From: a bacterium
GTDB taxonomy: Bacteria > Sysuimicrobiota > Sysuimicrobiia > Sysuimicrobiales > Segetimicrobiaceae
Assembly (NCBI GenBank): GCA_035488355.1
Contig: DATHLI010000251.1
Span: 1-43,344 of the forward strand
DNA: 43,344 nucleotides
Reading direction: 5' to 3'
Under the pieces are notes generated by a model. That model saw only the letters and a list, made by a program, of their open reading frames with translations, ran no database searches and was not told the origin of the DNA. Positions 13,175-31,566 of the stretch are shown here, one piece after another. Each line of letters opens with the position of its first letter. Positions within the stretch are counted from its first letter, which is position 1. The translations under genes and the position numbers were made by a program.

Positions 13175-13212
13175 GCGCCGGTCCTCAGTTGCCTCGACGA
13201 GCGGGGAAGATA
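13175..13212. repeat. Short direct repeat R2, copy a (3' end of a ParE/RelE-like gene plus trailer)
   Basis: The 35-nt core 13178-13212 recurs at 13787-13821 with 2 substitutions. On the minus strand it reads IFPARRGN-stop. Confidence 0.85.
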
Positions 13213-13301: not shown

Positions 13302-13386
13302 CCGCCGCGATCCATCTCTGCAAACTCGGCGATCATCTCGGCATGCTACTATGTAGATGCAAGTCACTACAATAGGAGCGATCACC

Positions 13387-13653
13387 GTGAAGCTTGGGCT
13401 CCGAGAGGCCAACCAGCAGTTCTCGAAGGCGATGCGGGCCATTCGTGATGGCGAGGAGGTCATCCTGACCGATCGCGGCCGTCCCTTCGCCATCATCGCC
13501 CCGCTGCGACCAGAGACGGCCCTCGACCGGTTTGCGCGCGCGGGCCTGATCCGGCCGGCGGCGAAGACTGACACGCTCCCTCCGGCACACCCTGTCTCGG
13601 CGCGAGGACGTCCCGCAGGACAAATTATCAGTGACCAGCGGGACGAGCGATGA
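13387..13653 (+). CDS. Phd/YefM-type (VapB-like) antitoxin
   Basis: KLGLREANQQFSKAMRAIRDGEEVILTDRGRPFAIIAP is a typical Phd/YefM N-domain. GTG at 13387 follows AGGAG (13374-13378). The tracked ORF starts at ATG 13357 without a Shine-Dalgarno. The stop overlaps a downstream ATG (ATGA 13650-13653). Confidence 0.7.
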   Translation: MKLGLREANQQFSKAMRAIRDGEEVILTDRGRPFAIIAPLRPETALDRFARAGLIRPAAKTDTLPPAHPVSARGRPAGQIISDQRDER

Positions 13654-13684
13654 TCGGATTGTCCTGGGCCTACATTGAAACGAG

Positions 13685-13778
13685 CATTTCTCGTGACCAT
13701 GCGATGAAACCGAACACGCTCGACCTGGTGGGCGAGGCAGGGGTCGAACCCGCGACCTCCTCGGCGTAAGCGAGGCGC
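13685..13778 (-). repeat. Direct repeat R1, left copy: 5'-truncated tRNA-Val fragment (13726-13778) plus 41-nt tRNA trailer
   Basis: 94 nt identical to 31416-31509 except for one mismatch (13765 c vs 31496 t). Covers tRNA positions 24-76 including CCA. The 5' part of the tRNA is absent. Confidence 0.9.
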
Positions 13779-13782
13779 CCCA

Positions 13783-13821
13783 GCGGCCGGTCCTCAGCTG
13801 CCTCGACGAGCAGGGAAGATA
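13783..13821. repeat. Short direct repeat R2, copy b
   Basis: Matches 13175-13212 with 2 substitutions and 1 extra g. It reads IFPARRGS-stop on the minus strand and abuts the isomerase stop codon (13822-13824). Confidence 0.85.
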
Positions 13822-14595
13822 CTAGAGCTCCAGGGTCTCGCGAATGAAGCGCAGGCTCTCGACGGAGCTTGTCTTGGGCGTCAGGACCGTCCCATTCTGC
13901 TCGACGACGATCCACCCTTGATAGTCCAGTTCGCGGAGCGCTTGGGCAACGGCGGGCCAGTGACAGCGGCCGCGACCGACTTCGGTCCGAAGATCAGTTT
14001 CAGGTGTCCAGTCCTTGAATTCCACGTACGCGATCCGGTCTCGATTCCGGCGGAAGAACTCCTCGGCCGAATGACCAACGAAATCCTTCGTCGCGTGTCC
14101 ACAATCCAGCATCGCGCCGATCGCCTTCGGATTCGTGTCGGCAAGGAGACGCTCGGTCTGCTCCATCGTTTCGGCGATCCAACCGGTGTGGTGGTGGTAG
14201 ACGGCGCGGATGCCGGCGCGCGCAGCGATCTTCCCGTGATGCTCGAGAGCGGGAACGACGACATCCCAATCGCCCTCGCTCCCACAGTACCCAGACAGAA
14301 TCATGATCTTGCCGCCGCCGACGGCCGCCATGAACCTTGCCAGGCGATCGGTGAACACGTAATCCAACCCCGGTCGCAAAATCACCCCAACGAGCTCCAG
14401 GTGGCGGCGCCCCAAACGCGCAAGAAAATCGTCCGGACGATCAATCCATGGACTGACGGTCGTGTCAAAGCACACGATGCCTTGGAACCCGATGTCCGTC
14501 GCATCATCAAGAAATCCTTCCAGGCGATCGATCGGCGAGACATCAAAACCCCAGGCCAAGTGGCTGACGCCCACGGGCAGTCGCGGCGTCGTCAT
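13822..14595 (-). CDS. Sugar phosphate isomerase/epimerase (xylose isomerase-like TIM barrel)
   Basis: 257 aa. Overall resemblance to the AP endonuclease 2 / xylose-isomerase-like TIM family. ATGA overlap with the upstream oxidoreductase gene at 14592-14595. Confidence 0.75.
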   Translation of the reverse strand: MTTPRLPVGVSHLAWGFDVSPIDRLEGFLDDATDIGFQGIVCFDTTVSPWIDRPDDFLARLGRRHLELVGVILRPGLDYVFTDRLARFMAAVGGGKIMILSGYCGSEGDWDVVVPALEHHGKIAARAGIRAVYHHHTGWIAETMEQTERLLADTNPKAIGAMLDCGHATKDFVGHSAEEFFRRNRDRIAYVEFKDWTPETDLRTEVGRGRCHWPAVAQALRELDYQGWIVVEQNGTVLTPKTSSVESLRFIRETLEL

Positions 14596-15662
14596 GAGCG
14601 CACCTCCGGGTGCCTCAGCTCGATCGTCTTGCCGGTCCGAATCGACTCGACGATCGCCAGACAGATCCGCACGTTCTCCCGGCCATCTCGCCCAGTGACA
14701 ACCGGAGGACGATCGTTGAGGACATTGTCGACAAAATTGGCGAGGCTGGGCCGGATCAAGGAGTAGGCCACGTATGGTCCCTCCCTGTAGATGAGAGTTT
14801 TGGGCCCCCCGTAGTCCTTGTCGACGACCGGGCCGCCGCGACGGGCCCAGACCAGCCGGTGGAACTCATGGTGAATCCCCTCGAGGTAGGCCTGACCCTC
14901 CGTGCCGTACAGGCTGAGGCGTGGGCGGACCGCCATCTCGTCGGTGGCGATGGCCCCACCGCTCACCGCCGCGACGGCGCCGGAGTCAAAGTGGAGAGTG
15001 CACACCGCGCCATCCGGTGTCGGCGCGCCTCGGCCGGTAAAGTTACCGCCCTCCGCGCGGACACGATTGGCATCACGAAGCAGGAAGCCAATCGTATCGA
15101 TAATGTGGCAGGTGTTCTCGTTGATCGGACTCGAGCCATCGCCCATCTTCCAGATCCAGGGGTGGTCGGCCGGCCGCAACCCGCCCACGTACTCACCGGA
15201 GACGAGGATCGGCCGCCCAACCTTCCCCTCGTCAATCACCCGACGGAGCTCAACCAGAGCGGGAAGCTGGCGCATCGGGAACTCCATGTGCAGGGGGACT
15301 CCCGCCCGCTCGCACGCGGCGATCATCGCATCGCAGTCCTCCACCGTCCCGGCCATGGGCTTCTCGACGAGGACCGCCACCCCTTTTCTGGCCGCCGCCT
15401 CGACCATGGGCCGGTGAAGGGCTGGGTTCGTGCACACCGAGACGGCATCGAGCCGTTCGTTCTCGAGCATCTCGACCCCGTCGTGGTATGGTCGAGCACT
15501 GTAATGCCGGCAGAGTTCCTCGAAGGGGACGGGGAGGTGGGTAGGGTCCGGCTCGGCCATTGCCACGATCCGGACCTGGGGGATTCCTACGTAGGTACTG
15601 GCATGCCGGATCCCGAAGCCAAGACCGATTATGCCGACCTTGAGCGTGCGGATCCCCGCCAC
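14592..15662 (-). CDS. Gfo/Idh/MocA-family NAD(P)-dependent oxidoreductase
   Basis: 356 aa. N-terminal Rossmann motif KVGIIGLGFG and the family-typical length and layout. Confidence 0.85.
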   Translation of the reverse strand: MAGIRTLKVGIIGLGFGIRHASTYVGIPQVRIVAMAEPDPTHLPVPFEELCRHYSARPYHDGVEMLENERLDAVSVCTNPALHRPMVEAAARKGVAVLVEKPMAGTVEDCDAMIAACERAGVPLHMEFPMRQLPALVELRRVIDEGKVGRPILVSGEYVGGLRPADHPWIWKMGDGSSPINENTCHIIDTIGFLLRDANRVRAEGGNFTGRGAPTPDGAVCTLHFDSGAVAAVSGGAIATDEMAVRPRLSLYGTEGQAYLEGIHHEFHRLVWARRGGPVVDKDYGGPKTLIYREGPYVAYSLIRPSLANFVDNVLNDRPPVVTGRDGRENVRICLAIVESIRTGKTIELRHPEVRS

Positions 15663-15809
15663 CGCATCCTCCAGGTATTGCCCCTGCAGCGAACAATGCT
15701 TGCGGTTCTTTAGGAGTACCTGAAAGCGTGGCGCTCGTCAAGAGCAGACGGTGTGGGCCTCGTGTCCCTTGGCGCGACGGGCCCTTGAGGTATTTCTGAG
15801 GGGGGAGCC

Positions 15810-16565
15810 ATGGCAGCCATGAAGATCCTGGTCGCGGGTGAATCCTGGATGACGGCGGCGACGCACTTTAAGGGATGGGATTTCTTCTCCAGCACGACAT
15901 TTCACACCGGGATCGACCATTTGCGCCGCGCGCTGGAAGGGCAGGCGATCGAGGTCGTTCACATGCCGTCACACGAAGCCGCGACGGCGTTTCCCCTTCG
16001 ACTCGCCGAGCTCCAAGCCTACAATGCCATCATCTTGAGCGACATTGGATCAAACACCCTGCTGCTTCATCCAGACACCTGGCTTCATGGGAAGACGATG
16101 CCGAATCGATTGAAGCTCCTGGCCGAATACGTCACCCAGGGCGGCGGCCTGGCCATGGCGGGGGGATATTACAGTTTCCAAGGGGTCTACGGCGCCGCCC
16201 GATATCATGGCACGGCGGTCGAGGAGGTGTTGCCGGTAGAGATCTCCCCGAACGACGATCGCGTTGAAGTCCCTGAAGGGTTCACACCTCGCGTGGTCGC
16301 GCCCACCCACCCCGTCACGCAGGGCATCCCTCGAGAGTGGCCGGCGCTGCTCGGATATAATGCGGTCCGGATCAAGCCTGAGGCGACGGTCCTGGCACTC
16401 GTTGGCGAGCATCCCATTCTCGCGGTGAGAACCGTCGGGGCCGGACGCACGCTGGCTTGGACATCTGATATCGGCCCGCATTGGTGCCCCGAGCCGTTTC
16501 TCACATGGCCGGGATACGCGCGACTCTGGGGACAAGCCATTCGATGGCTCGCCCGTCAAGCCTGA
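15810..16565 (+). CDS. GATase1-like domain protein (putative glutamine amidotransferase-like, DUF-type)
   Basis: 251 aa with GAGGGGGGA upstream. MKILVAGESW...ILSDIGSNTLLL...WTSDIGPHW matches my recollection of the GATase1-like cytoplasmic protein family found next to sugar genes. Confidence 0.55.
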   Translation: MAAMKILVAGESWMTAATHFKGWDFFSSTTFHTGIDHLRRALEGQAIEVVHMPSHEAATAFPLRLAELQAYNAIILSDIGSNTLLLHPDTWLHGKTMPNRLKLLAEYVTQGGGLAMAGGYYSFQGVYGAARYHGTAVEEVLPVEISPNDDRVEVPEGFTPRVVAPTHPVTQGIPREWPALLGYNAVRIKPEATVLALVGEHPILAVRTVGAGRTLAWTSDIGPHWCPEPFLTWPGYARLWGQAIRWLARQA

Positions 16566-16655
16566 GCGCAGGCCGGGGTTTGCGCGCGCAGGTTCCCGCC
16601 GGGGACGCCAGATCGGGCGGACAGCGGCTGGAGGGAATCTAGGAGGAAGGCGACT

Positions 16656-17978
16656 GTGGAGATCAGACGAGAGCGGGTATTGAAGTGGATCGACCTCCAC
16701 CACGAAGATATCGTGGATTTCCTCCAGGAACTTGTGCGCATCCCCAGCGTGAACCCGTGGTTTCATGAAACCCCGGGACCGTCTCGAGAGAACGACGTTC
16801 AAGCGGTGATCGCCGAGCGCCTGAAAACACTGGGGGCGATGGTGGAGCAGTGGGAACCTGACTCAGGGAAGCTGGCCAAGTACGAAGGGTATCCAGGGTA
16901 CTACGCCGGGCGCGACTTCCACGGACGCCCCAACCTGGCGGCAACACTCGCGGGAACCGGCCGTGGGCGCTCCCTCTTGCTCTTCGGCCACATCGATGTC
17001 GTCAAGGCGGGCGCGGGGTGGAGCACCGACCCGTTCGGCGGCGCGCGCCAGGACGGCCACATCTATGGACGCGGCACCGTAGACATGAAAGGCGGCGTCG
17101 CCGCGATGGTGATGGCCGTGGAGGCCGTCGTTCGAGCGGGGGTCCGGCCCACCGGGACGATTTTGCTGGGGACGGTCGTGGACGAGGAAGCCGGAGGCAT
17201 GGGCACCCTCGCGTTCGTCGATCGCGGCTATCATGCCGACGCCTGCATCCTCACAGAACCGACCGATTTGGTGGTCTCGCCCCTGTGTCGCGGGATCTTG
17301 TGGGGGAAGCTCATTCTCCGCGGACGGAGCGGGCACATTGAGATGCCCCAGGGGGACTGGCGGACCGGCGGGGCGGTGGACGCCATCGACAAGGCCCATC
17401 TATTTCTCGACTACTTCAGCCGTCTGAACGCCGACTGGGCGCGACGAAAGATCCACCCCCTGCTGCCCATCCCCTGCCAGCTCCACGTGGCCCAGATTCA
17501 GGCAGGGGAATACCCGACGACCTTCGCCAACCGGGCGGAACTCATCTTCAACGCGCAGTACCTTCCGTCGGAGCGGGACTCCTTCGGTCTCGGCGGCGCA
17601 GTCAAGCGGGAGATCCACGACGGCGTGCAGCAGGTCGCCGTGACGGATCCGTGGTTACGCGAGCATCCTCCGGAGATTGAGTGGCTGGTGGATGCCGACT
17701 GCGGTGAAACCCCGGCCGGTCATACGTTCGTCCAGCTCTGCCTGGAGAACCTCAAACACCTCGGGCATGAGGGACGGGTCGAAGGCATTTGCTCCCACAC
17801 AGACATGGGGTGGCTCGTCAACGCGGGAATTCCCACAATCAATCTAGGCCCCGGCGATCCACGGCTCGCCCACCAGAGCGACGAGAATCTCAGGGAAGCC
17901 AGCCTGCTCGATGCCGTCCGCGTGATCGCCCTGGTGATCCTGGACTGGTGCGGAGATAACGACGGACCCTCCGGCTGA
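16656..17978 (+). CDS. M20-family metallopeptidase/deacylase (ArgE/DapE/ACY1 type)
   Basis: 440 aa. GTG start after AGGAGGA. LLFGHIDVV, GRGTVDMKGG and VVDEEAGG are M20 metal-site motifs. Confidence 0.88.
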   Translation: MEIRRERVLKWIDLHHEDIVDFLQELVRIPSVNPWFHETPGPSRENDVQAVIAERLKTLGAMVEQWEPDSGKLAKYEGYPGYYAGRDFHGRPNLAATLAGTGRGRSLLLFGHIDVVKAGAGWSTDPFGGARQDGHIYGRGTVDMKGGVAAMVMAVEAVVRAGVRPTGTILLGTVVDEEAGGMGTLAFVDRGYHADACILTEPTDLVVSPLCRGILWGKLILRGRSGHIEMPQGDWRTGGAVDAIDKAHLFLDYFSRLNADWARRKIHPLLPIPCQLHVAQIQAGEYPTTFANRAELIFNAQYLPSERDSFGLGGAVKREIHDGVQQVAVTDPWLREHPPEIEWLVDADCGETPAGHTFVQLCLENLKHLGHEGRVEGICSHTDMGWLVNAGIPTINLGPGDPRLAHQSDENLREASLLDAVRVIALVILDWCGDNDGPSG

Positions 17979-17996
17979 CCGCCGAAGAGAGAACGG

Positions 17997-19055
17997 TCAC
18001 ATGCTCATCCCCTCCCCGGCGGAGGCGTCCGGCGCGAACACCCGCCGAGGATTGTCGACCAGGATCGTCCGGATTTGAGCGTCCGTGACCTGGTGCCGAC
18101 GGAGCCGCGGCACGAAATGCCGTAGGATGTACCCGTAGCCGAAGCCGCCGTACCGCGTCAGCATCATCTTGAGGAAGACGTCCTGGGAGAGCAGGAGCCG
18201 CTCCAGGTACCCGTGGTTGATAAGCCGGCACAGGGCCCGGGCATTTTCCTCGTCGCACGGCGACTGGGCGTGCTGGTCCGCATAGTAGTAGTCCATCCCG
18301 ATCATGTCGTACTCGAGATAGACCCCGCGCTCCGCGAGGCTCATCTGATAATCGGGGTCGTCGAGGCTGGGGTTCATGTGATCCAGAATGACGGACCGCA
18401 GGGCCCCGGCCTCCTCGGCGACCAGGTCCAGCACGCGGTGCCCGTGACGTTCCCACCCGGGCAGATGGATGGACAGGGGCACGCTCGTGGCCCGCTGCGC
18501 CCGCGCCGCGCCCCGGAGCACTTTCTGCTCCTCTGCGGTGAACGCGGCGCTCACTCCAATTTCGCCGATCAGGCCCGCGCGCACACCCTCCAGGCCCTCC
18601 AGGACGTCCGCCGCGATCACCTCGGACACCGCCTGGGCAGACATGCGCTTGACCTCGGGCGGATGCGCCGGCTCCAGGTAGTAGCCCGTCCCCATCACGA
18701 TGTGAAGCCCCGTCGCCCGCGCGATGCCCTGCAAGGCCTGCGGCGCCCGTCCGATGCCGCGGCAGGTCGGATCGACCACGGTCCCGCCTCCCAGGGAGCG
18801 GAACTGCGCCACCTCTTCGATGGCTGCCTGCACATCGCTGAGCCGGCAGTTGTCGATATTCGCGAACGGGTCCATACGGAGCTCGCCGTAGATTGCGCTG
18901 GAGAGGGGGGCGTCTCCCAGATGGCGGCGATGCGCTTCCACGGGCTTGTGCCACCACGTGGTCGCGTCCAGAAGGAGGTGCTCGTGCATCAAGGTGATCC
19001 CGAGGGTGTCCACCGGGACCGGACCCAGCACCGTCTGCACGATCGCGGGCCTCAT
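17997..19055 (-). CDS. Phosphotriesterase-related protein (amidohydrolase superfamily, Php-like)
   Basis: Start placed at ATG 19055 (MRPAIVQTVLGPV...), 352 aa, with the HxH motif in TLMHEHLLLD. The 71-codon upstream extension of the tracked ORF is Arg/Gly-rich and would overlap the nucleoside hydrolase gene. Confidence 0.82.
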   Translation of the reverse strand: MRPAIVQTVLGPVPVDTLGITLMHEHLLLDATTWWHKPVEAHRRHLGDAPLSSAIYGELRMDPFANIDNCRLSDVQAAIEEVAQFRSLGGGTVVDPTCRGIGRAPQALQGIARATGLHIVMGTGYYLEPAHPPEVKRMSAQAVSEVIAADVLEGLEGVRAGLIGEIGVSAAFTAEEQKVLRGAARAQRATSVPLSIHLPGWERHGHRVLDLVAEEAGALRSVILDHMNPSLDDPDYQMSLAERGVYLEYDMIGMDYYYADQHAQSPCDEENARALCRLINHGYLERLLLSQDVFLKMMLTRYGGFGYGYILRHFVPRLRRHQVTDAQIRTILVDNPRRVFAPDASAGEGMSM

Positions 19056-19114
19056 CCAGGGCGTCCCGCGCGTATCGCCCTGCTGCCCTCGCCCGCCGGA
19101 GCCCCGCACGCCCG

Positions 19115-20074
19115 TCACGGATACTGGGCCAGAGTCCCGATCAGCAGGTCGAAGAAGCGGGGGGCATCCAGGCGGAGTCCGACCTCCGCATTGGGCGGTT
19201 GCCCGCGCCGGATCCCTTCCATCCCGGTCATGCCGGTGACGGACGCCCGAAGGTGGCGATAGTCGCACACGGTCATGCCGCGCGTCTGCTCTCCCCGGAG
19301 CTCGACGCCCACATGCAACGGTCGCGCGTCAATCAACGTCGGATCAATGAGCCATGCCACAGCGCATGGATCATGCAAGTGTGCCCCTTCCAGGCCGAAC
19401 AGTGTGCGGAGCTGGCGGGTGAAAAAGTCCAGGAGTTCGACCACGATGTGTCCGGTGCGGTTGCCACGATCGCGGATACGCCCGATCTCCGCCGCCCCGG
19501 CCTCGGCCTGATGGGTGAGATTGAGGCCGACCATCTTGATCGGCACCCCGCTGGTGAAGACAATGTGCGCGGCCTCCGGATCACACAAGATATTGAACTC
19601 AGCCGCCGGAGTAGCGTTTCCCAAGGTCAACGAGCCGCCCATCAGGCTGATCTGGGTCAGGCGACCCGCCAGGCGGGGCTCGCGGCGCAGGGCCAGGCCG
19701 ACGTTGGTCAGGGGTCCGGTGGCCACCAGCGTGATCCCGTCGGTCTTCATCACCGTCTCGATGATCCACTCCACCGCGTGCTCCGGTTGCGGCTGAGTGG
19801 CTGGATCGGGCAGCGTCGGACCATCCAACCCACTCTGCCCGTGGATTTCAGGAGCATGCCTCGCGGGCTGAGCCAGCGGCCGGTCGCACCCCTTGCGCAC
19901 CGGAATCGCCGTCAACCCGCTAAACTCCAGGACCTTCAGGGCATTCGCCGTGACCTTCTCCAACGTCTGGTTCCCGTGGACGGTGGTAATGCCCATGACG
20001 TCAAGGTGCCGGGCGGCCAGCAGGATAGCCAGCGCATCGTCGTGGCCGGGATCGCAGTCGAGGATGATCTTCAT
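19115..20074 (-). CDS. Nucleoside hydrolase (IUNH family)
   Basis: 319 aa with the N-terminal aspartate cluster ILDCDPGHDDALAI. ATGA overlap with the upstream gene at 20071-20074. Confidence 0.9.
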   Translation of the reverse strand: MKIILDCDPGHDDALAILLAARHLDVMGITTVHGNQTLEKVTANALKVLEFSGLTAIPVRKGCDRPLAQPARHAPEIHGQSGLDGPTLPDPATQPQPEHAVEWIIETVMKTDGITLVATGPLTNVGLALRREPRLAGRLTQISLMGGSLTLGNATPAAEFNILCDPEAAHIVFTSGVPIKMVGLNLTHQAEAGAAEIGRIRDRGNRTGHIVVELLDFFTRQLRTLFGLEGAHLHDPCAVAWLIDPTLIDARPLHVGVELRGEQTRGMTVCDYRHLRASVTGMTGMEGIRRGQPPNAEVGLRLDAPRFFDLLIGTLAQYP

Positions 20075-21153
20075 GATCGTGTCCGATTCTCGGTGCCGGC
20101 GGCCCTCCGCCGGAGGGCAATCTCCGTCAGCCCCCGGGCAATGCCCTCCAGGTCGAACTGGTTGGCTGCCCGGAACACCGCATAGAGGTCTTGCGGCACA
20201 CGGGAGAAACCCCGCAGGGCACCTGCCAATGCTCCAGCCATCGTCGCAATCGTGTCGGTATCGTTCCCGATGTTGGCCCCCGCGACGATGGATTCCAGCG
20301 GATCCCCACGTGCGAAGACGAACAGCCCGATCGCCGTGGGGACCGATTCGGAGATCTCTACGGAATTCCCGATATAGCTCTCCAGCGTCCCCATCGCTTC
20401 TTCCCGGCTCCTGGCCTTCAGGGCCAAGGTGGCGGCGAGTTCGATTCGGGACTCAATGCGGGGCCCGGGCACCAAACGAATCCGTGAATCGTGGCGAGCC
20501 AGTTCCTCACCCCGGGCAGCGCCATCCAGACAGGCGCGGACCACCGAGAACACATCTGCATCGTCCGTGAGCGCATGGGCCACGCCGGCGGCGAGCGCAC
20601 AGGCCGCCGAGACCGCACGCTGAGTGTTGTGCGCAGGAAGACAGGTCACGACGGCATCACGGCATGCTTCCGCGGGATTTCCAGGATGGACCAATCCTAC
20701 AGGGGCGATCCGCATCGCGGCGCCATTGGTGACGCCCATGTGGGTGGTTTGCCGGTCTGATTGCCCGACGGTATTGACCTTATAGGGATCCCGGCCCGCG
20801 CGGACGGCTTCAATGACCGCTCGCGTGCTGGGGCCCATGTTCGCCACCTTGGGAGACTCCGCCGCCCAGCGCAGGAGGCACGAGATCCATGCCTCCTCGG
20901 TCACTCTCCCGCCCGTCTCGATGATCATCTGAGCCAGGTAGAGCATCTGGCTCGCATCATCGGTCACCTCGCCCGCCTCGTTGCGAGCCATTGCCGCAAA
21001 GGTATCGGGCGGCGGCTTGTGAAACGTTCGGATGGGACCGTGATACTGGGCGTAGATCTCCGCGGTGGTCCACTGCTCCGTTGCGGCCCCCAAGGCGTCG
21101 CCCATCGCCGCAGTACTCAAGCAGCCCAAGACGCGGTCGTAGAGGTCCATCAC
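20071..21153 (-). CDS. ADP-ribosylglycohydrolase-family protein (YegU-like)
   Basis: 360 aa. N-terminal AAMGDALGA and family-typical length. Confidence 0.85.
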   Translation of the reverse strand: MMDLYDRVLGCLSTAAMGDALGAATEQWTTAEIYAQYHGPIRTFHKPPPDTFAAMARNEAGEVTDDASQMLYLAQMIIETGGRVTEEAWISCLLRWAAESPKVANMGPSTRAVIEAVRAGRDPYKVNTVGQSDRQTTHMGVTNGAAMRIAPVGLVHPGNPAEACRDAVVTCLPAHNTQRAVSAACALAAGVAHALTDDADVFSVVRACLDGAARGEELARHDSRIRLVPGPRIESRIELAATLALKARSREEAMGTLESYIGNSVEISESVPTAIGLFVFARGDPLESIVAGANIGNDTDTIATMAGALAGALRGFSRVPQDLYAVFRAANQFDLEGIARGLTEIALRRRAAGTENRTRS

Positions 21154-21168
21154 GTCCCCTTTACGAGA

Positions 21169-22122: not shown

Positions 22123-22130
22123 TCGTGGAC

Positions 22131-23429: not shown

Positions 23430-24298
23430 CGCCGCGCCCCGGTTCTGTCCAATCCGATCCAAGCGGCGCCCAGCATGGCCATCGCATAGGCCCCGCAGGC
23501 TCCCAGGGTGCCGAGATACGAGAGCGCATCGCCCCTGAGAAGAGCGCTCAGCCCGCGGTTGAAGTAGGCAAACGGCAGCACCCATCCCGTCACGGCCGAC
23601 AGCGTGAGCGCGGTGACGCGCATCACCTGCACGGGGCTCACGTGGAACTCCGACGTGGGCACACGCGCCAGGACCTCGACCACCACCTGCAGGCCGATGG
23701 AGAGGGTCGTCAGACCCAGGACGGCGAGGACCACCGCGCGGAGCCGCCGGATGACTGCGGCCACGGCCAGGGCCAGGCTGATCGCGGCGGCGGCCGTGCC
23801 CACCGAGAGGATGACGGCCCAGACCACGGTGCCGCCGACTCTCAATCCGGTCACCGCCATGAACAGCAGATCGCAGACCCCGACGAGCACGGTGAGCCAG
23901 AGGTAGAGGACGATGTGTGCGCCGAGTTTCGCCACCATGTACGTCTGCGAACTGACGGGCCCGTAGAAGAGGAGTTCAATCGCCCCCTGCTCGCGATCCC
24001 GCGCCACCGTGATCGCCGCCGATACGGCCTGGAACACCGACAGGAGTAGCGTCCCCAGGTAGACGGGGAGGCCGAAGGGCTCAGCAAGCACGAGCAGGCC
24101 ATCGTGCTCCACCCGGTAGAGGTCATTCTTCAGGATGAACCCTGTCATCGCCGCGATGCCCCCAACGACGACATAGGGTGGCAGGGCGCTCACCGAGGTG
24201 ACGAGATCCACGCGCACCAAGGCCCGCACAATCGTGAGGGGAAGAGCCCACCGCCGGACGCCACGCCTCCAGACCGCGCCGGACGCTACGAGGTCCAC
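23426..24298 (-). CDS. ABC-2-type transporter permease
   Basis: 290 aa with about six hydrophobic segments. Overlaps the upstream ATPase gene by 13 nt. Confidence 0.75.
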   Translation of the reverse strand: MDLVASGAVWRRGVRRWALPLTIVRALVRVDLVTSVSALPPYVVVGGIAAMTGFILKNDLYRVEHDGLLVLAEPFGLPVYLGTLLLSVFQAVSAAITVARDREQGAIELLFYGPVSSQTYMVAKLGAHIVLYLWLTVLVGVCDLLFMAVTGLRVGGTVVWAVILSVGTAAAAISLALAVAAVIRRLRAVVLAVLGLTTLSIGLQVVVEVLARVPTSEFHVSPVQVMRVTALTLSAVTGWVLPFAYFNRGLSALLRGDALSYLGTLGACGAYAMAMLGAAWIGLDRTGARR

Positions 24299-25230
24299 TG
24301 GTCAACGTCTCTCTCGGTCAACGTGAGAAATGCGTCTTCCAGGCTCGGTTCGCGCAGGCGCATGCCGACGATCACGCCGCCGCGCGCGGAGATGGTCCGG
24401 GACAGCACTCCGCGCATGTCCGTTTCCCCCTCGACGGTCACGGACAACCGATCGCCGGCGCCGGCCACGTGACGCACGCACGGCAGCGCGGCAAGCATGT
24501 CCGCCGCCCCGGGCACCGGTTCCAGCAACTGAATCTCGACCTCGGCGTCCCGGCGGAGCATGACCCGAAGGCCGGCGATCGAATCCTCGCGGATGAGGCG
24601 CCCGTGGTGGAGAATCCCCACCCGGTGCGCGGTGCGCTCCACTTCGGACAACAGGTGCGAGGAGATCAAGATCGTCATACCTCGCTGGTTCCGCTCCAAG
24701 AGGAGCCGGCGGACCTCCACGATCCCGTGGGGGTCCAGTCCGGACACGGGTTCGTCGAGGACGAGGAGCTCCGGTTCATGCAGCAGCGCCCGCGCCAGAC
24801 TCAACTTCTGCTTCATCCCCCGCGAGAAATCGCGGGCGGGGAGTGACCGGAACCCCTGGAGGCCGAGGCGTTCCAACAGGCTGCCGATCCGCTCTCGCTT
24901 CCCGCGCACCTCGTACAGATCGGCAAAGACCGACAAATATTCCTCGGCCGTCAGATGATCGTAAAAGTAGTCCTGTTCTCCCACGACGCCAATGCGCCGC
25001 TTGAGGGGGCACGGGTCCTCGCGCAGACGACGGCCCCACAAATACACCTCTCCCGTCGTCGGCGTGACGATCCCGAGCAGCATGAGCAGCGTCGTGGTCT
25101 TCCCGGCGCCATTGGGCCCGAGGAATCCGTAGATCTCCCCCCGCTCAACGCTCAGGGTCAGATCCTGCACCGCGGCGAGACCGCGATAGCATCGTGTCAG
25201 GTGTGTGGTGTGGATTACCGGCTCACTCAT
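24286..25230 (-). CDS. ABC transporter ATP-binding protein (ABC-2/DrrA-CcmA-like exporter type)
   Basis: 314 aa. Walker A GPNGAGKTT, degenerate signature SRGMKQKL, Walker B LLVLDEP. Confidence 0.88.
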   Translation of the reverse strand: MSEPVIHTTHLTRCYRGLAAVQDLTLSVERGEIYGFLGPNGAGKTTTLLMLLGIVTPTTGEVYLWGRRLREDPCPLKRRIGVVGEQDYFYDHLTAEEYLSVFADLYEVRGKRERIGSLLERLGLQGFRSLPARDFSRGMKQKLSLARALLHEPELLVLDEPVSGLDPHGIVEVRRLLLERNQRGMTILISSHLLSEVERTAHRVGILHHGRLIREDSIAGLRVMLRRDAEVEIQLLEPVPGAADMLAALPCVRHVAGAGDRLSVTVEGETDMRGVLSRTISARGGVIVGMRLREPSLEDAFLTLTERDVDQWTS

Positions 25231-25249
25231 CGTCTGCGGGTGTGCGCGG

Positions 25250-26185
25250 CTAGCCTTTCAGCCCGGACATGACCACACCTTTGATGTAATAGCGCTGCAG
25301 AAGCAAAAAGAGAATGATCACGGGGACCGACGCCAGCACCGATCCCGCGAAGATACGGCCCCAGTAGACCTGGGTCTGCGTGGTCTGCTGGGCGATGGCC
25401 ACCTGGATCGTCTGCAGGTCCTTCCGGCCCACGGCAATCAGCGGCCAGTAGAAGAGGTTCCAAATGAACTGAAACTCGAGCAAGGCGGTCGTGATGAGCC
25501 CCGGGAGAGCGTTCGGCACGATGACATGGCGCAGGATCCCGAGGTGCGAGGCCCCATCCATGGTCGCGGCCTCGTCCAGCTCCCGGGGAATCTCCTTGAA
25601 GAACTGGATGAGCGCAAAAATGACGAACGGGCTCGCATACCATGGGAGGACCAGCGCCCAATAGGTATCCTGCAGGTGCAACGTCCGGACGACGATATAG
25701 AGCGGCACCATCACCGCCTCGAATGGAATCAGCAGGGTGGCGATCACAAAAAGGAGCACCAAATCCTTTCGCGGGAACTCCAGCCGCGCGAAAAAGTAGG
25801 CGCCCATGGTGTTGAAAATCAGCGAAGACACCACGACCCCGGCGGACACCAGGGCCGTGAAGCCCAGCGCGCGGCCAAAATCGAGCCCAAACGATCGGCC
25901 CTCCGGTGACAGCCCAAGGATATCCAGGAAATTCTTCACCGACCACACCACGGGCACAAACGTGTGCCAGGAGAGCGGATACGTGAACTGAAAGATCTCG
26001 GTTTCCAGGCGGAGACTTCCCAGGATCATCCAGGCGAACGGGACGATGTAGACGATGAGGAGGGCCACCCCCAGCGCATACTGGACTCCCCGGGCGGCCA
26101 CGTTCCGGGCCCGCCGGGGGACCGCCACCCGCCAGGGACGCAGCGGGAGGGGTTCTATGGCGAGGGAGGGGCGGTTCACCTGCAT
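25250..26185 (-). CDS. Carbohydrate ABC transporter permease (MalG/CUT1 type)
   Basis: 311 aa, multi-pass, EAA loop EAATMDGAS. Confidence 0.88.
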   Translation of the reverse strand: MQVNRPSLAIEPLPLRPWRVAVPRRARNVAARGVQYALGVALLIVYIVPFAWMILGSLRLETEIFQFTYPLSWHTFVPVVWSVKNFLDILGLSPEGRSFGLDFGRALGFTALVSAGVVVSSLIFNTMGAYFFARLEFPRKDLVLLFVIATLLIPFEAVMVPLYIVVRTLHLQDTYWALVLPWYASPFVIFALIQFFKEIPRELDEAATMDGASHLGILRHVIVPNALPGLITTALLEFQFIWNLFYWPLIAVGRKDLQTIQVAIAQQTTQTQVYWGRIFAGSVLASVPVIILFLLLQRYYIKGVVMSGLKG

Positions 26186-26218
26186 CGCTGCCGGCCCCGA
26201 GCCGCCTTCATGCGCCCC

Positions 26219-27142
26219 TCAATACTCCACTTCGGATCGCAACCAGCGCATCTGCGCGGTACTCACGCCGAGGAGCACGATGAGCGTAATCATCGAGAGC
26301 GCACTGGCGTAGCCCATATCCTGGAACAGAAATCCATTCTGGTAGATGTAATAGACGATCACTTTCGTCGAATCGAGCGGGCCCCCCTTGGTCATCGTGT
26401 AAACGGGAACGAACACCTGAAAGGAAAAAATCGTCTGGGTGACGACCACGAACATGAGCACCCGGCGGAGCAGAGGCAGCGTGATGCTCCGGAACTGTTG
26501 CCAACTGCTGGCCCCATCGATCCGGGCGGCCTCGTGAAACGTGTCGGGAATGCCCTTCAGCCCCGCCATCAGAACAATCAAGCTGAATCCGATCTCTTTC
26601 CACACCATCATGATGACAATGGCCACCAGAGCCACCCGGGCGTTCGACAAGAAGACGACGCGCGGCAATCCCGCGCTCGTCAAGATGCTGTTGAACAGGC
26701 CCAATTGCACGTGGTACATCAGCGACCAGATCACCGAGATCACCACGATCGACGTGACCACAGGCGCGAAGATTGCCGAACGCACGGCGGCGGAAAACCG
26801 GTCCTCCCGTTGGAGGAGAATCGCCAGGGCAAGCGACAGCACAATTTGCGCAGGGACTTTGAGGAGAACATATTGCACGGTGACGGTCAGAGACTTCCAA
26901 AAGACCGGGTCTTGGAGCAAACGACCATAGGCCTGCAGGCCGATAAATTTGCCATAGCCCCCCAGCAGGCTATACTGCCACAGGCTGGACCTGATCGCGG
27001 CCAGGATGGGGACGTACCGGAAGAGAAGAAAGTTCACAACAGCGGGGGCAACGAATAGGAACGCAATGAGATAGCTCCGTCGCCGCCTGGTCCACCATCC
27101 CCGCGGGGATGGATAGGCGGGGGCCACCACCGCGCTCGACAT
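26219..27142 (-). CDS. Carbohydrate ABC transporter permease (MalF/CUT1 type)
   Basis: 307 aa, multi-pass, EAA loop EAARIDGAS. Confidence 0.88.
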   Translation of the reverse strand: MSSAVVAPAYPSPRGWWTRRRRSYLIAFLFVAPAVVNFLLFRYVPILAAIRSSLWQYSLLGGYGKFIGLQAYGRLLQDPVFWKSLTVTVQYVLLKVPAQIVLSLALAILLQREDRFSAAVRSAIFAPVVTSIVVISVIWSLMYHVQLGLFNSILTSAGLPRVVFLSNARVALVAIVIMMVWKEIGFSLIVLMAGLKGIPDTFHEAARIDGASSWQQFRSITLPLLRRVLMFVVVTQTIFSFQVFVPVYTMTKGGPLDSTKVIVYYIYQNGFLFQDMGYASALSMITLIVLLGVSTAQMRWLRSEVEY

Positions 27143-27207
27143 CAGCCCCTCCGGTCAGTTGACTGCCGGGGGCGCCGGGCTGCCCGGCGCCCCCGGCATG
27201 CGACCGC

Positions 27208-28575
27208 CTACTTCCAGCCTTTGTACTTCGCGAGCAACCCCTGGATTCGCTGAGCGCCCGCTTTCATCTGCTCGGCGACGTTCGCGCCGGCCATGATGTT
27301 GAGGGTCACTTCGGCAAACACTTGCTGATACTCGGTATAGCCCGGTGTCTGGATCCGAGGGGCGCCGATCTTGTTCATCGCCTCGATCCAGATGGTCTGC
27401 TTTCCCCCGGGCCGATACTCCGGCAGGGTGTTCAGGAGGCTGATGTTCGCGGGGAGCTGGCGCACATGCTTGTACCAAATGCGCGCACCCGCATCGCTGC
27501 TGGCGTACTTCACGAAGGCCAGACTCTCATTGAAATGTTTGGTATTGGGGGAAATGCCGTAGGCCCAACTGCCGGTGTGGCACAATTGCGTCTTAAAGTA
27601 CGGGATCCCCGTCACGCCCCAAGGGAACTTGCCTTCCCCGTAAAGGCGGTTGAGCTCGCCAATGCGGTTGTCGGGCGTGACCATGAACGCGGCCTTCTTT
27701 GTCTCGAAGATCTGCGGAATCGCTTCAATCGGAGTCACCTTATACTTCCGGTGGAGATCTTGGTAAAATTGCATGGCCTCGACAGCCTCGGGCGTGTCGA
27801 AATACCCCACGAAGGTGACGCCGTCAGGACCCATCCCCTCGTAGGTCGCGCTGCCTTTCGCGCCGTTGGAACGCCGGAAAATCCCGTGCTCGTAGTCCCC
27901 CACCCAGGTGCCCTGCCCCCACCGAAGCCCCCACACAGAGGGGATGCTGCTGCCGGAGGGATGGGCGGTGGTCTTCTGCCACGCGGTCAACGCCTCGGCC
28001 ATTGTCCAGCTCTTGTCCAGCGTCGCGGGGGGCTTGATGCCCGCGGCATCCGTCATCTCCCTGTTGTAGACCATCAACGAGCACGATTGCATCATCGGCG
28101 GACCGTACAGCTGGCCGCGGAAGCTCCCTTCCTCGACGGATTGCGGAAGCCATTGCTTCATCTCCGCATCCGTGAAGTACTTGCCCAGTGGCAAGAGGCT
28201 GCGGTAGAACGCGTAGTGCTTCATATCAGGACCATCGGACTGCACGATGTCCATCGCGGCGCCCGCGGCGACCGCGCTCTCAATCTTCGGGAACAGGTCC
28301 TGGAAGGGGACGGTCTCAAAGGCAATGTCGACGGACGACCACTTGCCGCCATCGATCTTGCGGAACTCCTGCAGGATTTCTTTCCAGGCTTGAATCTGCG
28401 CATCGTCGGTAATGGCGAGCAACTTCAGCACGACCGGTGGCTTTGTGGCTTGCGCTCTGAGGGGCACCGTCGGCGAGGGGGACCCGGCGACCGGTGCGAG
28501 GTCTCCGGTGGCCACGGACTCCAGCACCGCAAGGACGAGCAAAACGGTGACGCTGGCCCATATTCGAATCCACAT
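27208..28575 (-). CDS. Family-1 extracellular solute-binding protein (sugar)
   Basis: 455 aa. AGGAGG Shine-Dalgarno, signal-like N-terminus. First gene of a long minus-strand gene chain. Confidence 0.85.
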   Translation of the reverse strand: MWIRIWASVTVLLVLAVLESVATGDLAPVAGSPSPTVPLRAQATKPPVVLKLLAITDDAQIQAWKEILQEFRKIDGGKWSSVDIAFETVPFQDLFPKIESAVAAGAAMDIVQSDGPDMKHYAFYRSLLPLGKYFTDAEMKQWLPQSVEEGSFRGQLYGPPMMQSCSLMVYNREMTDAAGIKPPATLDKSWTMAEALTAWQKTTAHPSGSSIPSVWGLRWGQGTWVGDYEHGIFRRSNGAKGSATYEGMGPDGVTFVGYFDTPEAVEAMQFYQDLHRKYKVTPIEAIPQIFETKKAAFMVTPDNRIGELNRLYGEGKFPWGVTGIPYFKTQLCHTGSWAYGISPNTKHFNESLAFVKYASSDAGARIWYKHVRQLPANISLLNTLPEYRPGGKQTIWIEAMNKIGAPRIQTPGYTEYQQVFAEVTLNIMAGANVAEQMKAGAQRIQGLLAKYKGWK

Positions 28576-28869
28576 CTTCCTTCCTCCTCTCGCGCCTTAA
28601 GTCTCGTTCATCCCATATGTGACTTCCGGGATTCCCTGCCACGAGATCGTGCACCTTCTGTCGGGGCGAGGATGCGCCGCTTCGCGGAGGACTCCGGGCT
28701 CCTGGGCACGCTTCGCCGGAGACGATGGGCCAGGACTTGCATAGCGCTCGACGAAGCTCATGCGATGGAGATCCATCCCGCACAAGAACCCGCACCCGAT
28801 TGGGATCTCTCGCAGGCGGGCCGGGCCGCGGTCCGGAACCAGGTGCGGGGGAGGGGGCCGGGAGGACGG

Positions 28870-29286
28870 ATGATGAACAAAATTGATCCGAATGTCGTGC
28901 CGACTCAAACGTTCGAGTGGGGAGCCATCAAATGGCTCGTGAGTGCCAGGAACATCGCCGGAGCGGGGCTCACGTTTGGGGAGGTCGTGCTCCTGCCGGG
29001 GAAGGGCCATGCCCGGCACAATCATCCCACGTCTGAAGAAGTTCTGTACGTCCTGTCGGGCCACGCCGTCCAGATGCTCAATGACGAAAAGCCGTTTTCG
29101 GTTGGGCCCGGCGATACCATCTATGTCCCGCGAGGCGTGTTTCATTCAACCGTGAACGTGGGGTGGGAGCCGATGCGACTGATCGCCCTCTATAATCCTC
29201 AGGGGGCAGAGAAGGCGCTGGAGGGGTTGCCCGACTTCGCCGAGGTTCCAGCCGGGAGGGCGCCCTCCTGGTCCCGAGCCCTGTAG
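28870..29286 (+). CDS. Cupin-domain protein
   Basis: 138 aa from the ATG at 28870 after GGAGGA. Both cupin motifs are present: HARHNHPTSEEVLYVLSG and GDTIYVPRGVFHS. The tracked ORF start at 27322 lies antisense to the binding-protein gene and is rejected. Confidence 0.82.
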   Translation: MMNKIDPNVVPTQTFEWGAIKWLVSARNIAGAGLTFGEVVLLPGKGHARHNHPTSEEVLYVLSGHAVQMLNDEKPFSVGPGDTIYVPRGVFHSTVNVGWEPMRLIALYNPQGAEKALEGLPDFAEVPAGRAPSWSRAL

Positions 29287-29317
29287 GGAGCATCCTGGAG
29301 CCTCCCGGGAGGGGCGG

Positions 29318-30568
29318 ATGGCAACCATCGTGCTCATCGGAACACTCGACACGAAGGGAATCGAGTACGAGTACATGCGCCGGTGCCTCCGCGCAGAGGG
29401 GTGCGAAGTGATCCTGGTCGACGCGGGGGTGATGGGAACGCCGCTGGCTGTGCCCGACATCCCCCGGGAAGACGTGGCGAACGCCGCCAGCGAAACCATC
29501 GCCAACCTCGCGACCCGGGGTGACCGTGGGTTGGCCGTGGAGACGATGGCGGCCGGGGCGGCGAAGATCGCGATCGACCTGTTCCAGCGGGGCAGGCTGC
29601 ACGGCGTCCTTGGGCTCGGCGGGTCCGGCGGGTCCACGGTGGTGACCCGGGCGATGCGTGAGCTCCCGGTCGGCGTCCCCAAGTTCATGGTCTCGACCCT
29701 GGCCTCCGGCGACACCCGGCCATACGTCGGAGCCAGCGACATCGCGATGATGTACTCTGTGGTCGATATCGCAGGAATAAACAGGATTTCAGAGCGGATC
29801 TTGACGAACGCCGCAGCGGGGATCGCCGGCATGGCTCGCGCGTATGAGGTGTTTCAGCCTGCTCCCGGGGCCAAGGCATTGATTGGCGCGACGATGTTCG
29901 GAGTGACCACCCCGTGTGTCACCGCAGCTCGGCACCGCCTGGAAGGAAAGGGCTACGAGCCCCTCGTGTTCCATGCCACCGGCACCGGTGGACAGTCGAT
30001 GGAAGCGCTCGTCAGGGGCGGCTATCTCGCCGGCGTGCTCGACATCACCACCACCGAACTTGCTGATGAGCTCGTGGGGGGCGTGCTCTCCGCGGGCCCG
30101 GAACGGCTCGAGGCGGCAGGCGCCCGCGGGATCCCGCAGGTCGTTTCACTCGGAGCACTCGACATGGTCAACTTCGGCCCGGCGGATACCGTGCCCGAGA
30201 GATTCCTGGGCCGCCTCCTCTACAAACACAACCCGAGTGTAACGCTGATGCGGACGACGGCGGCCGAGTGTGCCGAGTTGGGCCGCACCATCGCACGGAA
30301 GTTGAACGCGGCCAGGGGGCCGGTGGCGGTGTTCATCCCGCTGCGGGGCGTGTCGGCGATTTCGACGAGGGGCGGCCCCTTTTATGATCCGGACGCCGAC
30401 CGGGCGCTCATCGGCGGCCTCAAGGCCAACCTGCGCGCCGGCATCGAGGTGCGCGAGTGGGAGACCGACATCAACGATCCTGACTTTGCCCACGCGATGG
30501 CCGACCGCCTCGATGAGCTCATCCGGGAGGCGAAGACGCACGCGGCACCGGGAGGGGCATCGCGATGA
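29318..30568 (+). CDS. UPF0261 / Tm-1-like ATP-binding protein
   Basis: 416 aa. N-terminus [11 protein letters not shown] and overall resemblance to the UPF0261 family (N-terminal module of plant Tm-1). Confidence 0.8.
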
Positions 30569-31389
30569 CACGGGCCGACACGCTGGAGCGCTTCCGCTCC
30601 ACGGTCGCGACCGGCGGCGCGCTGATCGGCGCAGGCGCCGGGACGGGACTCTCAGCGAAGTGCGCGGAGGCGGGAGGCGCCGATCTCATCATCATCTACA
30701 ATTCCGGCCGGTATCGGATGGCCGGGCGCGGCTCGCTCGCGGGTCTGATGCCCTACGGAGATGCGAATGCGATTGTCGTCGAGATGGCCGCGGAGGTCCT
30801 CCCGGTTGCCAGGAAGACACCCGTGCTCGCCGGGGTGTGCGGCACAGATCCGTTCCGCCTCATGCCCATCTTCCTGCGCCGGTTGAAAGACATCGGCTTT
30901 GCCGGAGTGCAGAACTTCCCCACGGTGGGCATCATCGATGGAATCTTCCGCCAGAACCTGGAGGAGACCGGGATGGGATTTGCCCTCGAGGTGGAGATGA
31001 TCCGTCTCGCGCACGATCTCGATATGTTGACGGCGCCGTACGTCTTCGATCCAGATCAGGCGCGGACCATGGCCGGGGCGGGCGCAGATATCCTCGTGCC
31101 GCACGTGGGGCTCACGACGAAGGGCACGATCGGGGCGAAGACCGCGGTGAGCCTTGATGAGGCCGCCAAACGCGTCCAGGCGATGTGCGATGCGGCGAAA
31201 GCTGTCAGCCCTCAGATCATCGTGCTCTGCCACGGCGGTCCAATTGCCGAGCCGGAGGACGTCCAGTACCTACTCGAACGCACCCGCGGGGTCGCCGGCT
31301 TCTTCGGAGCGTCGAGCGTGGAGAGACTGCCCACCGAGCGGGCCATGATCGATACCATGCGGCGGTTCAAGAGGTTGACCCGCTCTTGA
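30565..31389 (+). CDS. Phosphoenolpyruvate hydrolase-like TIM-barrel protein (partner of UPF0261)
   Basis: 274 aa. ATGA overlap at 30565-30568. [20 protein letters not shown] is typical of this family. Confidence 0.8.
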
Positions 31390-31415
31390 CGCGCAGATTG
31401 CCGGCATGGCATGTC

Positions 31416-31509
31416 CATTTCTCGTGACCATGCGATGAAACCGAACACGCTCGACCTGGTGGGCGAGGCAGGGGTCGAACCCGCGACCTCCTCGGTGTAA
31501 GCGAGGCGC
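31416..31509 (-). repeat. Direct repeat R1, right copy (within and 3' of the intact tRNA-Val)
   Basis: Same 94 nt as 13685-13778 in the same orientation with one mismatch. Confidence 0.9.
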
Positions 31510-31531
31510 TCTACCGCTGAGCTACTCGCCC
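31457..31531 (-). tRNA. tRNA-Val (anticodon TAC), CCA encoded
   Basis: Hand-folded 75-nt cloverleaf. Acceptor GGGCGAG/CTCGCCC, D arm GCTC-AGCGGTA-GAGC, anticodon arm CCTCG-CTTACAC-CGAGG, variable AGGTC, T arm GCGGG-TTCGACC-CCTGC (one G-U pair), then A-CCA. Confidence 0.9.
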
Positions 31532-31566
31532 CCGCATCAGTATACCAAAGCCGCCCAGACGAGCGA

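Follow-up and report, generated by a model that had tools for sequence, protein, structure and literature searches.

A metabolic island between an intact tRNA-Val(TAC) gene and a displaced 3' fragment of this gene in a Segetimicrobiaceae bacterium

Repeats, tRNA gene and cargo of the island

We analyzed the contig DATHLI010000251.1 of a bacterium of the Segetimicrobiaceae (GenBank assembly GCA_035488355.1). The whole stretch of 43,344 nucleotides is called the window in this text, and its proteins in the source metagenome-assembled genome (MAG) are HTD47282-HTD47300. The subject of this study is a block of metabolic genes which lies between an intact tRNA-Val gene and a displaced fragment of the same gene. 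The main features are as follows.

13685 to 13778, no strand assigned: left, distal repeat copy (A1), a 5'-truncated tRNA-Val fragment followed by the same 41 nt as in the right copy; a weaker match runs on to 13785
13786 to 31415, no strand assigned: island proper, composed of the short repeat R2 and 17 cargo genes (Pfam; absent at the sister-lineage locus; shift in G+C content at third codon positions, GC3)
31416 to 31509, no strand assigned: right, tRNA-proximal repeat copy (A2), tRNA nt 23-75 (canonical 24-76) and 41 nt downstream (alignment)
31457 to 31531, minus strand: intact tRNA-Val(TAC), the integration target (ARAGORN)

When 13685-13778 was aligned with 31416-31509, 94 nt were aligned in the same orientation with only one mismatch (93/94 identical), exactly as an original prediction from the sequence had described. 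The mismatch, C at 13765 and T at 31496, is located 3' of the anticodon at nt 36 of the tRNA sequence. That is, it falls at canonical position 37, the position in the anticodon loop that had been predicted. In the repeat search of the window, the pair was found as a match of 101 nt at 96% with a start-to-start spacing of 17,731, and the longest direct repeat after it in the 43-kb window was only 36 nt. The A1/A2 pair is therefore far beyond chance.

The tRNA part of A2 occupies 31457-31509, and the sequence 3' of the tRNA occupies 31416-31456. The Rfam tRNA model scored A1 as a partial match of 23.7 bits. The ARAGORN call and the alignment thus agree with the earlier description of A2 as the 3' part of tRNA-Val(TAC) with its trailer and of A1 as a 5'-truncated fragment. 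No third copy of the tRNA-Val repeat was present in the window, including the region to the left of the solute-binding protein (SBP) gene. Islands in tRNA genes (tDNA islands) are defined by just this signature, an intact tDNA and a displaced 3' fragment in direct orientation (Hudson, Lau and Williams, PMC4383910). In the window, the fragment lies 17.7 kb from the intact gene, which is within the range of 2-200 kb used for such islands.

The gene list that had been predicted between the repeats was reproduced by a Pfam analysis of the gene-sized open reading frames (ORFs). The cargo consists of a TIM-barrel isomerase, a Gfo/Idh/MocA protein (GFO), a GATase1-like protein, an M20 protein, a PTE protein, a nucleoside hydrolase, an ADP-ribosylglycohydrolase with a PfkB kinase, an ABC-2 exporter, a CUT1 importer, a cupin, and a UPF0261 protein with a PEP-hydrolase-like protein. 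More distant genomes keep the genes of the GFO, TIM-barrel, cupin, UPF0261 and PEP-hydrolase-like proteins, the PfkB kinase and the CUT1 transporter together, and the cargo therefore forms a coherent cluster for uptake and catabolism. As judged from these families, the predicted function of the island is the uptake and breakdown of sugars and nucleosides.

The Pfam analysis of all gene-sized ORFs of the window detected neither integrase or excisionase genes nor transposase or phage genes. In addition, a phmmer search of the six-frame translation of the window, using an integrase from the tRNA-Val locus of a relative as the query, gave no match to a tyrosine integrase. The lack of mobility genes noted in the original prediction was thus confirmed. 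The prediction had also regarded this lack as unusual, but this view does not hold, because the absence of an integrase is common at such hot spots (PMC3146451, PMC5635113).

Two types of mobile element were rejected as candidates. A prophage, an integrative and conjugative element (ICE) or an integrative and mobilizable element (IME) was rejected because no phage structural, conjugation, relaxase or integrase gene was found by Pfam between the repeats. A split integrase of the SSV type was rejected because the borders are 36 nt (R2) and 26 nt away from complete metabolic genes, and because the ORFs extending over the repeats have no similarity to integrases.

The sister lineage and the remnants of a toxin gene

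A sister lineage is represented by L015-L024, of which L015 is a MAG of "Bacillati bacterium ANGP1" / Ca. Segetimicrobium genomatis. Both flanks of this lineage are 88-95% identical to those of the window, and the 17.6-kb block is absent from the locus. The order in the sister lineage begins with 4HBT, a small ORF, the SBP gene, a Phd antitoxin and an intact 146-aa PIN toxin. After a spacer of about 30 nt there follow an 18-nt 3' fragment of tRNA-Val, a 4.9-kb module (two permeases, SBP and arabinofuranosidase), a 72-nt fragment (30 nt of trailer and tRNA nt 34-75) and a 0.94-kb module with a TumE toxin and a helix-turn-helix gene. At the right end are tRNA-Val, which is identical to that of the window, and then EPSP synthase. 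No integrase was found in this locus. Since the modules each end in a tRNA-Val fragment, the locus is a tandem array of integrase-less modules at the same tRNA. That is, the block is missing from the same site in close relatives, where other modules are present between the same flanks. The variable region is larger than had been predicted; it is layered and starts from about 11.3 kb.

The comparison with L015 also revealed remnants of a toxin-antitoxin (TA) pair at both ends of the island.

13387 to 13653, plus strand: intact Phd/YefM-type antitoxin gene, the toxin of which is lost (Pfam PF02604, E = 3.6e-6, 27.1 bits)
13650 to 13687, plus strand: first 12 codons of a PIN (VapC-like) toxin gene, fused to its last 4 codons inside A1 (alignment with L015)
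31409 to 31430, plus strand: 3' end of the same PIN toxin gene beside the intact tRNA, made up of 7 nt beyond the repeat edge, the four terminal codons and the stop codon (alignment with L015)

The PF02604 score of the antitoxin is just under the cut-off of 29.8 bits, and the protein belongs to the same 90% cluster as the antitoxin of the intact TA pair of the sister lineage. The homology of the L015 toxin gene with the window extends to 13687; the N-termini of the toxin in L015 and in the window pair as MTGLPWAYIDTS and MIGLSWAYIETS. A microhomology of 3 nt, CAT, is present at the joint of the toxin deletion (13685-13687). The TGA stop codon of the L015 toxin aligns with 31428-31430 of the window (13697-13699 in the left copy), within TCTCGTGA of the "trailer". 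According to this alignment, the 41-nt "trailer" consists of the last four toxin codons, the stop codon and a 29-nt spacer. At the right copy, 7 further nt (GCATGTC, 31409-31415) match the 3' end of the toxin gene, and to the left of 31409 the homology with the toxin was not significant (p about 0.05).

According to the alignment, the left repeat is bounded on its outer side by a deletion scar in the PIN toxin gene and not by an att boundary. As the left repeat ends at such a scar, the duplicated block was originally at least 101 nt in length. Moreover, because the toxin 3' end and the spacer are present there, the sequence adjoining the rebuilt tRNA is of the host type and not of the element type. 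The earlier interpretation of the repeats as a scar of integration into the tRNA is supported, and the nature of the left repeat's outer edge is a correction to it.

It might be argued that one repeat copy, or the joint between the copies, was made by the assembler, since the source contig was assembled from a metagenome and two related lineages co-occur in the same samples. When the 39-aa ORF across the joint 13684|13685 was looked up exactly, ten contigs were obtained, each from a different JGI or ENA sample. They are all colinear with the order SBP-R1-antitoxin-A1-R2-cargo without gaps at 99.2-99.99% identity, and in all of them A1 is unchanged, including its single difference from the right copy. 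The population occurs in the ENA samples ERZ27315227, ERZ27315238, ERZ28573625, ERZ27286355, ERZ27286203 and ERZ27285964 and in the JGI samples 3300026552, 3300005177, 3300026317 and 3300006800. The right junction is reproduced in L007, a separate sample and assembly, which extends from the cargo end over tRNA-Val to the beta-CASP gene with 99.1% identity, and in which A2 and the junction are 100% identical. Thus the left junction recurs base for base in ten independent assemblies and the right junction in one; furthermore, the A copies differ from each other by one base and the R copies by two. We therefore rejected an artefact, the probability of which is negligible. The repeat structure is not an assembly artefact.

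Searches of other collections gave no further copies. A 32-mer across the joint of the trailer and the tRNA had 0 matches in metagenome and viral contig collections, and the 53-nt tRNA part had 0 matches among viral contigs; these collections evidently lack this population, which other sources contain, and the negatives therefore carry no weight. The loci L002, L004 and L005 gave no useful information.

The region to the left of the TIM-barrel gene contains a second repeat and further short relics.

13786 to 13821, no strand assigned: R2, a repeat of 36 nt lying between A1, at its truncated end, and the TIM-barrel stop codon, and found in no loci but those of the window type
13177 to 13212, no strand assigned: R1, the second copy of the 36-nt repeat, at the left end of a 159-nt segment
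13272 to 13308, no strand assigned: a 37-mer, 84% identical to the sequence beside tRNA-Val fragment 2 of the sister lineage (L015 15751-15787)

R1 and R2 are direct repeats of 36 nt with 2 mismatches, and R2 directly abuts A1. R2 is possibly the terminal (P'-arm) sequence of the island. The 159-nt segment (13177-13335) is specific to the window and stands where the sister lineage has 46 nt. The score of the 37-mer was reached by 0/500 and 0/1000 shuffles, and we think that the 37-mer is probably a relic of the arm of an older element. The 159-nt segment may be a graveyard of the ends of older elements. The similarity of R to tRNA-Val, or to the arms beside the fragments of the sister lineage, was not significant. 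For 13213-13271, Rfam gave no tRNA-like relic and the similarity to a T arm was not significant.

tRNA-Val loci in relatives and recombination in a flank

A tRNA-Val pattern with one degenerate base matched 30 JGI loci (L035-L064), and the sequences downstream of the tRNA in these loci are highly diverse. Two of the loci contain islands of similar architecture: the repeat of a 5.2-kb island in L057 starts at tRNA nt 22 (nt 23 in the window), and that of an 11-kb island in L053 at nt 30. No integrase was found in either island by Pfam on the main ORFs or by six-frame phmmer, and the main ORFs gave metabolic and regulatory genes only. In L047, a frameshifted tyrosine integrase is located downstream of tRNA-Val, with the Arm-binding, SAM-like and C-terminal catalytic motifs distributed over three frames, and a group II intron reverse transcriptase/maturase lies between the integrase and the tRNA. 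In L045 (2063-2332), at a distance of about 80 nt from the tRNA, no more than the C-terminal ~100 codons of an integrase are left. From the remnants in L047 and L045, it follows that integrases target this tRNA-Val and decay there. L046 and L048 appear to carry transposases of insertion sequences, as judged from sequence motifs only. These comparisons indicate that tRNA-Val(TAC) is an accretion hot spot in the ANGP1 / Ca. Segetimicrobium clade.

In the 30 loci, a trailer of the type A(G)TAAATCAAGGCTTTCCGCTCGGTG is common to many unrelated downstream contexts within 30-40 nt after tRNA-Val. Most relatives have a 'AAATCAAGGCTTTCCGC'-type sequence adjoining tRNA-Val; in L045 this sequence is placed between the stop codon of the integrase and the tRNA. 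The shared trailer is probably the conserved tRNA-proximal arm of one family of elements. The start of the repeat at the 5' edge of the anticodon stem, at nt 22/23 in two unrelated islands, fits the common anticodon-centred class of tyrosine-integrase sites, an assignment which reportedly goes back to Williams in 2002.

These data bear on the view that the block is native and that the left tRNA fragment arose by local duplication or rearrangement without gene transfer. Consistent with this view are the purely metabolic cargo, the modest shift in composition (the tetranucleotide correlation between island and flanks is 0.965-0.969), and the finding that in another MAG (HEX9245979-89) the TIM-barrel side of the block is again six genes away from SBP. 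In contrast, the filling between the same flanks is different in the sister lineage, the homologues of the cargo are found in other contexts, the same architecture with other cargo recurs at this tRNA in several lineages, and in the window as in L057 the boundary of the anticodon stem is the point where the repeat begins. As for the homologues, L006 (92% nt) and L008 (88-90%) run on past the PEP-hydrolase-like gene into other genes with no tRNA, and L009 (90%) diverges directly after the TIM-barrel gene. That is, the homologues of the cargo ends (88-92% nt) are placed in other contexts, and the homology stops at the stop codons of the terminal genes. The mean GC3 was 0.81 in the island genes and 0.88 in the flanks (Mann-Whitney p = 7e-5), and the GC content was 0.650 and 0.683, respectively. 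A native origin with a local duplication is largely refuted by the filling in the sister lineage, the contexts of the homologues and the recurrent architecture, and we consider it very improbable.

The original prediction of a foreign island at a tRNA scar is thus supported by the absence of the block in the sister lineage, the homologues elsewhere and the GC3 shift.

Homologous recombination was detected in one flank, and a probable imported tract in the cargo.

11787 to 13091, minus strand: flanking SBP gene, containing the recombinant crossover 12378-12412 (mosaic L026)

L026 (ENA ERZ27315238) is of the sister type at 107/107 informative sites up to 12378 and of the window type from 12412 on, the exceptions being two ambiguous sites right where the alignment ends. 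Past about 12,500, L026 differs from the window by 2 mismatches in 11 kb. The crossover thus falls within an interval of 34 nt inside the SBP gene. L028 and L034, window-type contigs which come from two other samples, begin at 12379, one base past the last site of the sister type (L030, L032 and L033 start at 12360, 12314 and 12259, respectively). Since L028 and L034 start where a graph of mixed haplotypes must branch, a chimeric assembly of L026 is unlikely. In the cargo, 36 of the 49 differences between L007, a contig of the same species, and the window are concentrated within 30800-31200, a tract of 400 bp in the PEP-hydrolase-like gene, the last gene of the cargo; this looks like an imported recombination tract. 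The locus thus has the marks of a hot spot, namely alternative contents, conserved flanks and a breakpoint in a flanking gene. In these sequence comparisons, the direct evidence at the locus today is for homologous recombination and not for site-specific recombination.

Several other observations were made around the locus. On the left, a 10.8-kb block (585-11387) lies between the 4HBT gene and the small ORF, and it is absent from this place in the sister lineage and in L026. Its genes encode an LigD phosphoesterase, a ligase, a primase-polymerase, a sugar ABC transporter, an FGGY kinase, BtpA and an M29 peptidase. In L025, L027 and L031 the right-hand part of the block is joined to the small ORF as in the window, and in L012 (85% nt) the synteny with the block stops exactly at the M29 stop codon. 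The SBP gene at 11773-13016 and that at 35575-36818 are inverted paralogues (72-76% nt), the left one having no adjoining permease genes; the right-hand SBP is missing from L003, and in L001 the SBP is missing together with both permeases. In the MAG with HEX9245979-HEX9245989, the accession order suggests GATase1-like, GFO, TIM barrel, six genes, SBP and the small ORF, and this order suggests a further variant of the left junction.

On the right, the sister lineage has no beta-CASP/MBL gene between tRNA-Val and EPSP synthase (L015 16725-16843, compared with window 31457-32983), and this gene is present in the more distant relatives L001 and L003. An exact look-up of the beta-CASP protein returned no record. 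Within the module of the sister lineage, extra ORFs without a Pfam match were found in single samples, L020 5203-6105 (300 aa) and L024 1613-1939 (108 aa); they interrupt the arabinofuranosidase gene and a permease gene. In L009, a 170-nt tmRNA-like element (1477-1646) with a G3:U acceptor stem, a T arm and ACCA lies directly after the TIM-barrel homologue. Its score with the Rfam tmRNA model is 21 bits (E = 4e-6), under the threshold of 47 bits, and it was not used as evidence. The element may be a sign that a related island uses another integration site.

Origin of the island and its meaning

We think, with a probability of roughly 0.6, that the block is a horizontally acquired metabolic island in the 3' half of tRNA-Val(TAC), which has lost its integrase, is now fixed and is probably immobile. 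The course of events can be considered as follows. A circular DNA carrying the tRNA from nt 23 to its 3' end and the sequence downstream would have entered the cell. By a single crossover in the copy of the tRNA, the island would have been inserted, the tRNA rebuilt and the old 3' part displaced, so that a direct repeat was formed. This first event was most likely catalyzed by a tyrosine integrase of the anticodon-stem/loop class, and the integrase module would then have been lost. A later deletion would have removed most of the PIN toxin gene, leaving the antitoxin and trimming the distal repeat to 94 nt. The island would now be fixed and probably immobile, and would move to sister lineages by homologous recombination in the flanking genes. 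The catalysis of the original event by an integrase, the route by which the integrase was lost and the present immobility are inferred. The structure of the locus is identical in all ten window-type contigs. Of the three possibilities that the original prediction had offered, a decayed and immobilized island fits best, given the decayed integrases and the integrase-less islands at the same tRNA.

Several points weigh against this explanation. No integrase was found, the search being that of the window alone. Neither an empty site (attB) nor a circular junction (attP) was seen, in look-ups that are biased against finding them. The agreement of the repeat starts at nt 22 and nt 23 comes from one other island (L057), and the R repeat is not explained by the proposed scheme. 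Finally, the tRNA-proximal junction has, instead of the 'AAATCAAGGCTTTCCGC'-type trailer, a host-type sequence consisting of at least 7 nt of the toxin end and the 41 nt; therefore a simple deletion of the integrase module cannot produce it. Such a junction can be explained if the island descends from an aberrantly excised circle which was re-inserted by homology.

The host-type junction also bears on a second possibility, in which the island is a cis-mobilizable element (CIME) that keeps working attL and attR sites and is moved by a tRNA-Val-specific tyrosine integrase from elsewhere in the genome or from an incoming element, possibly after tandem accretion. The identity of the repeat copies at 93/94 positions, the tandem modules of the sister lineage with a tRNA-Val fragment at the end of each, and the existence in the clade of integrases targeting this tRNA are in agreement with this possibility. 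Moreover, CIMEs and integrase-less tandem islands are documented (PMC5704250), and 15 Dehalococcoides ssrA islands lack an integration module (PMC3146451). However, the distance from the last cargo gene to the proximal repeat is only 26 nt, and this spacer and the start of the repeat are host toxin sequence. Because the spacer is host sequence, the element-side arm needed by lambda-type integrases is either missing or inside the coding region, and the integrity of the att sites is doubtful. In addition, the structure was invariant in ten samples, no attB or attP junction turned up, and the sole traceable transfer between lineages used homologous recombination in the flank. We therefore regard a working CIME as unlikely.

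A third possibility is that the island was docked without an integrase. In this case, an aberrantly excised circle would have taken up the distal att region together with host DNA (the toxin 3' end, the spacer and tRNA nt 23-75), leaving the integrase behind, and a RecA-dependent single crossover in at least 101 nt of homology would have inserted it into a naive relative and rebuilt the tRNA. As a variant, a linear fragment may have been inserted by homology-facilitated illegitimate recombination. Such docking accounts for the host-type junction and for the repeat running at least 48 nt past the tRNA, and homologous recombination is demonstrably active at the locus. From about 31381, the last 2-3 codons of the PEP-hydrolase-like gene are unlike those of the closest homologues, as at an illegitimate joint, but the C-terminal tail of this family varies anyway. 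The order SBP-R1-Y-A1|R2-cargo-A2 is that expected as the product of a Campbell insertion of a circle (R-cargo-A). On the other hand, an earlier event of the integrase type is still needed for the joint at nt 23, no intermediate was seen (an island with the intact toxin, or a donor with the integrase), and the homology with the toxin past 7 nt was not significant. Taken together, docking is a rather doubtful explanation. We speculate, with similarly low confidence, that the tRNA-fragment-flanked islands of this clade can be made or re-made without an integrase by the docking of circles at the tRNA-Val of a relative, which would yield a long "att-like" repeat. If this is true, integrase-less islands would stay transferable, and some tRNA-fragment scars in genomes would be products of homologous and not of site-specific recombination.

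Returning to the fixed, integrase-less island that we favor, we compared the locus with known systems. The island resembles the tDNA islands of Islander (PMC4383910) in having an intact tRNA and a displaced fragment at its ends, a restored tRNA and metabolic cargo, and in the start of its repeat at the anticodon-stem region, as in the common "anticodon-centred" class. It differs from them in that no tyrosine integrase, which Islander requires inside or overlapping the island, is aboard, and in that the repeat goes at least 48 nt past the tRNA into the 3' end of a host toxin gene.

CIMEs and tandem accretion have been described (Pavlovic 2004 and Bellanger 2011, as reviewed in PMC5704250). Like CIMEs, the island has att-type flanking repeats and lacks integration and transfer genes, and there is a tandem array with decayed modules where the target gene ends. 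Unlike in CIMEs, the element-side arm beside the tRNA is apparently host sequence, and no ICE or IME relatives of the cargo were found.

The ssrA islands of Dehalococcoides (McMurdie et al., PMC3146451) include 15 without an integration module, which were proposed to be CIMEs or fixed. They too are arranged in tandem downstream of a single small-RNA gene, whose 3' end is repeated where each island ends, and their cargo is catabolic or respiratory. In contrast, their target is tmRNA, their repeat is 20 bp and their integrase is a serine integrase, whereas the present locus has tRNA-Val as its target and repeats of 18-101 nt, and the relatives have decayed tyrosine recombinases. Hot spots of horizontal gene transfer which are driven by recombination and free of integrases (PMC5635113) likewise have alternative gene sets between the same flanks and no mobility genes, and the present locus has a breakpoint in the flank (L026) and the imported tract in the cargo. 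The difference is that the present hot spot still shows tRNA-fragment scars; that is, both mechanisms left traces.

In conclusion, the locus is an ordinary acquired island of a known kind in a little-studied lineage, and it gives no indication of a new mechanism. For annotation, this means that tools demanding an integrase miss such islands, and that what limits an "att repeat" on the outside can be a deletion scar of later date and not a recombination boundary. The locus is a clean, multi-sample case from an uncultured soil lineage of phylum level (ANGP1 / Ca. Segetimicrobium), in which a tRNA gene served as a long-lived loading dock. Its history is layered: site-specific scars and the decay of integrases are recorded at the tRNA, TA and transporter/catabolic modules accumulate there, and whole modules are swapped between sister lineages by homologous recombination.

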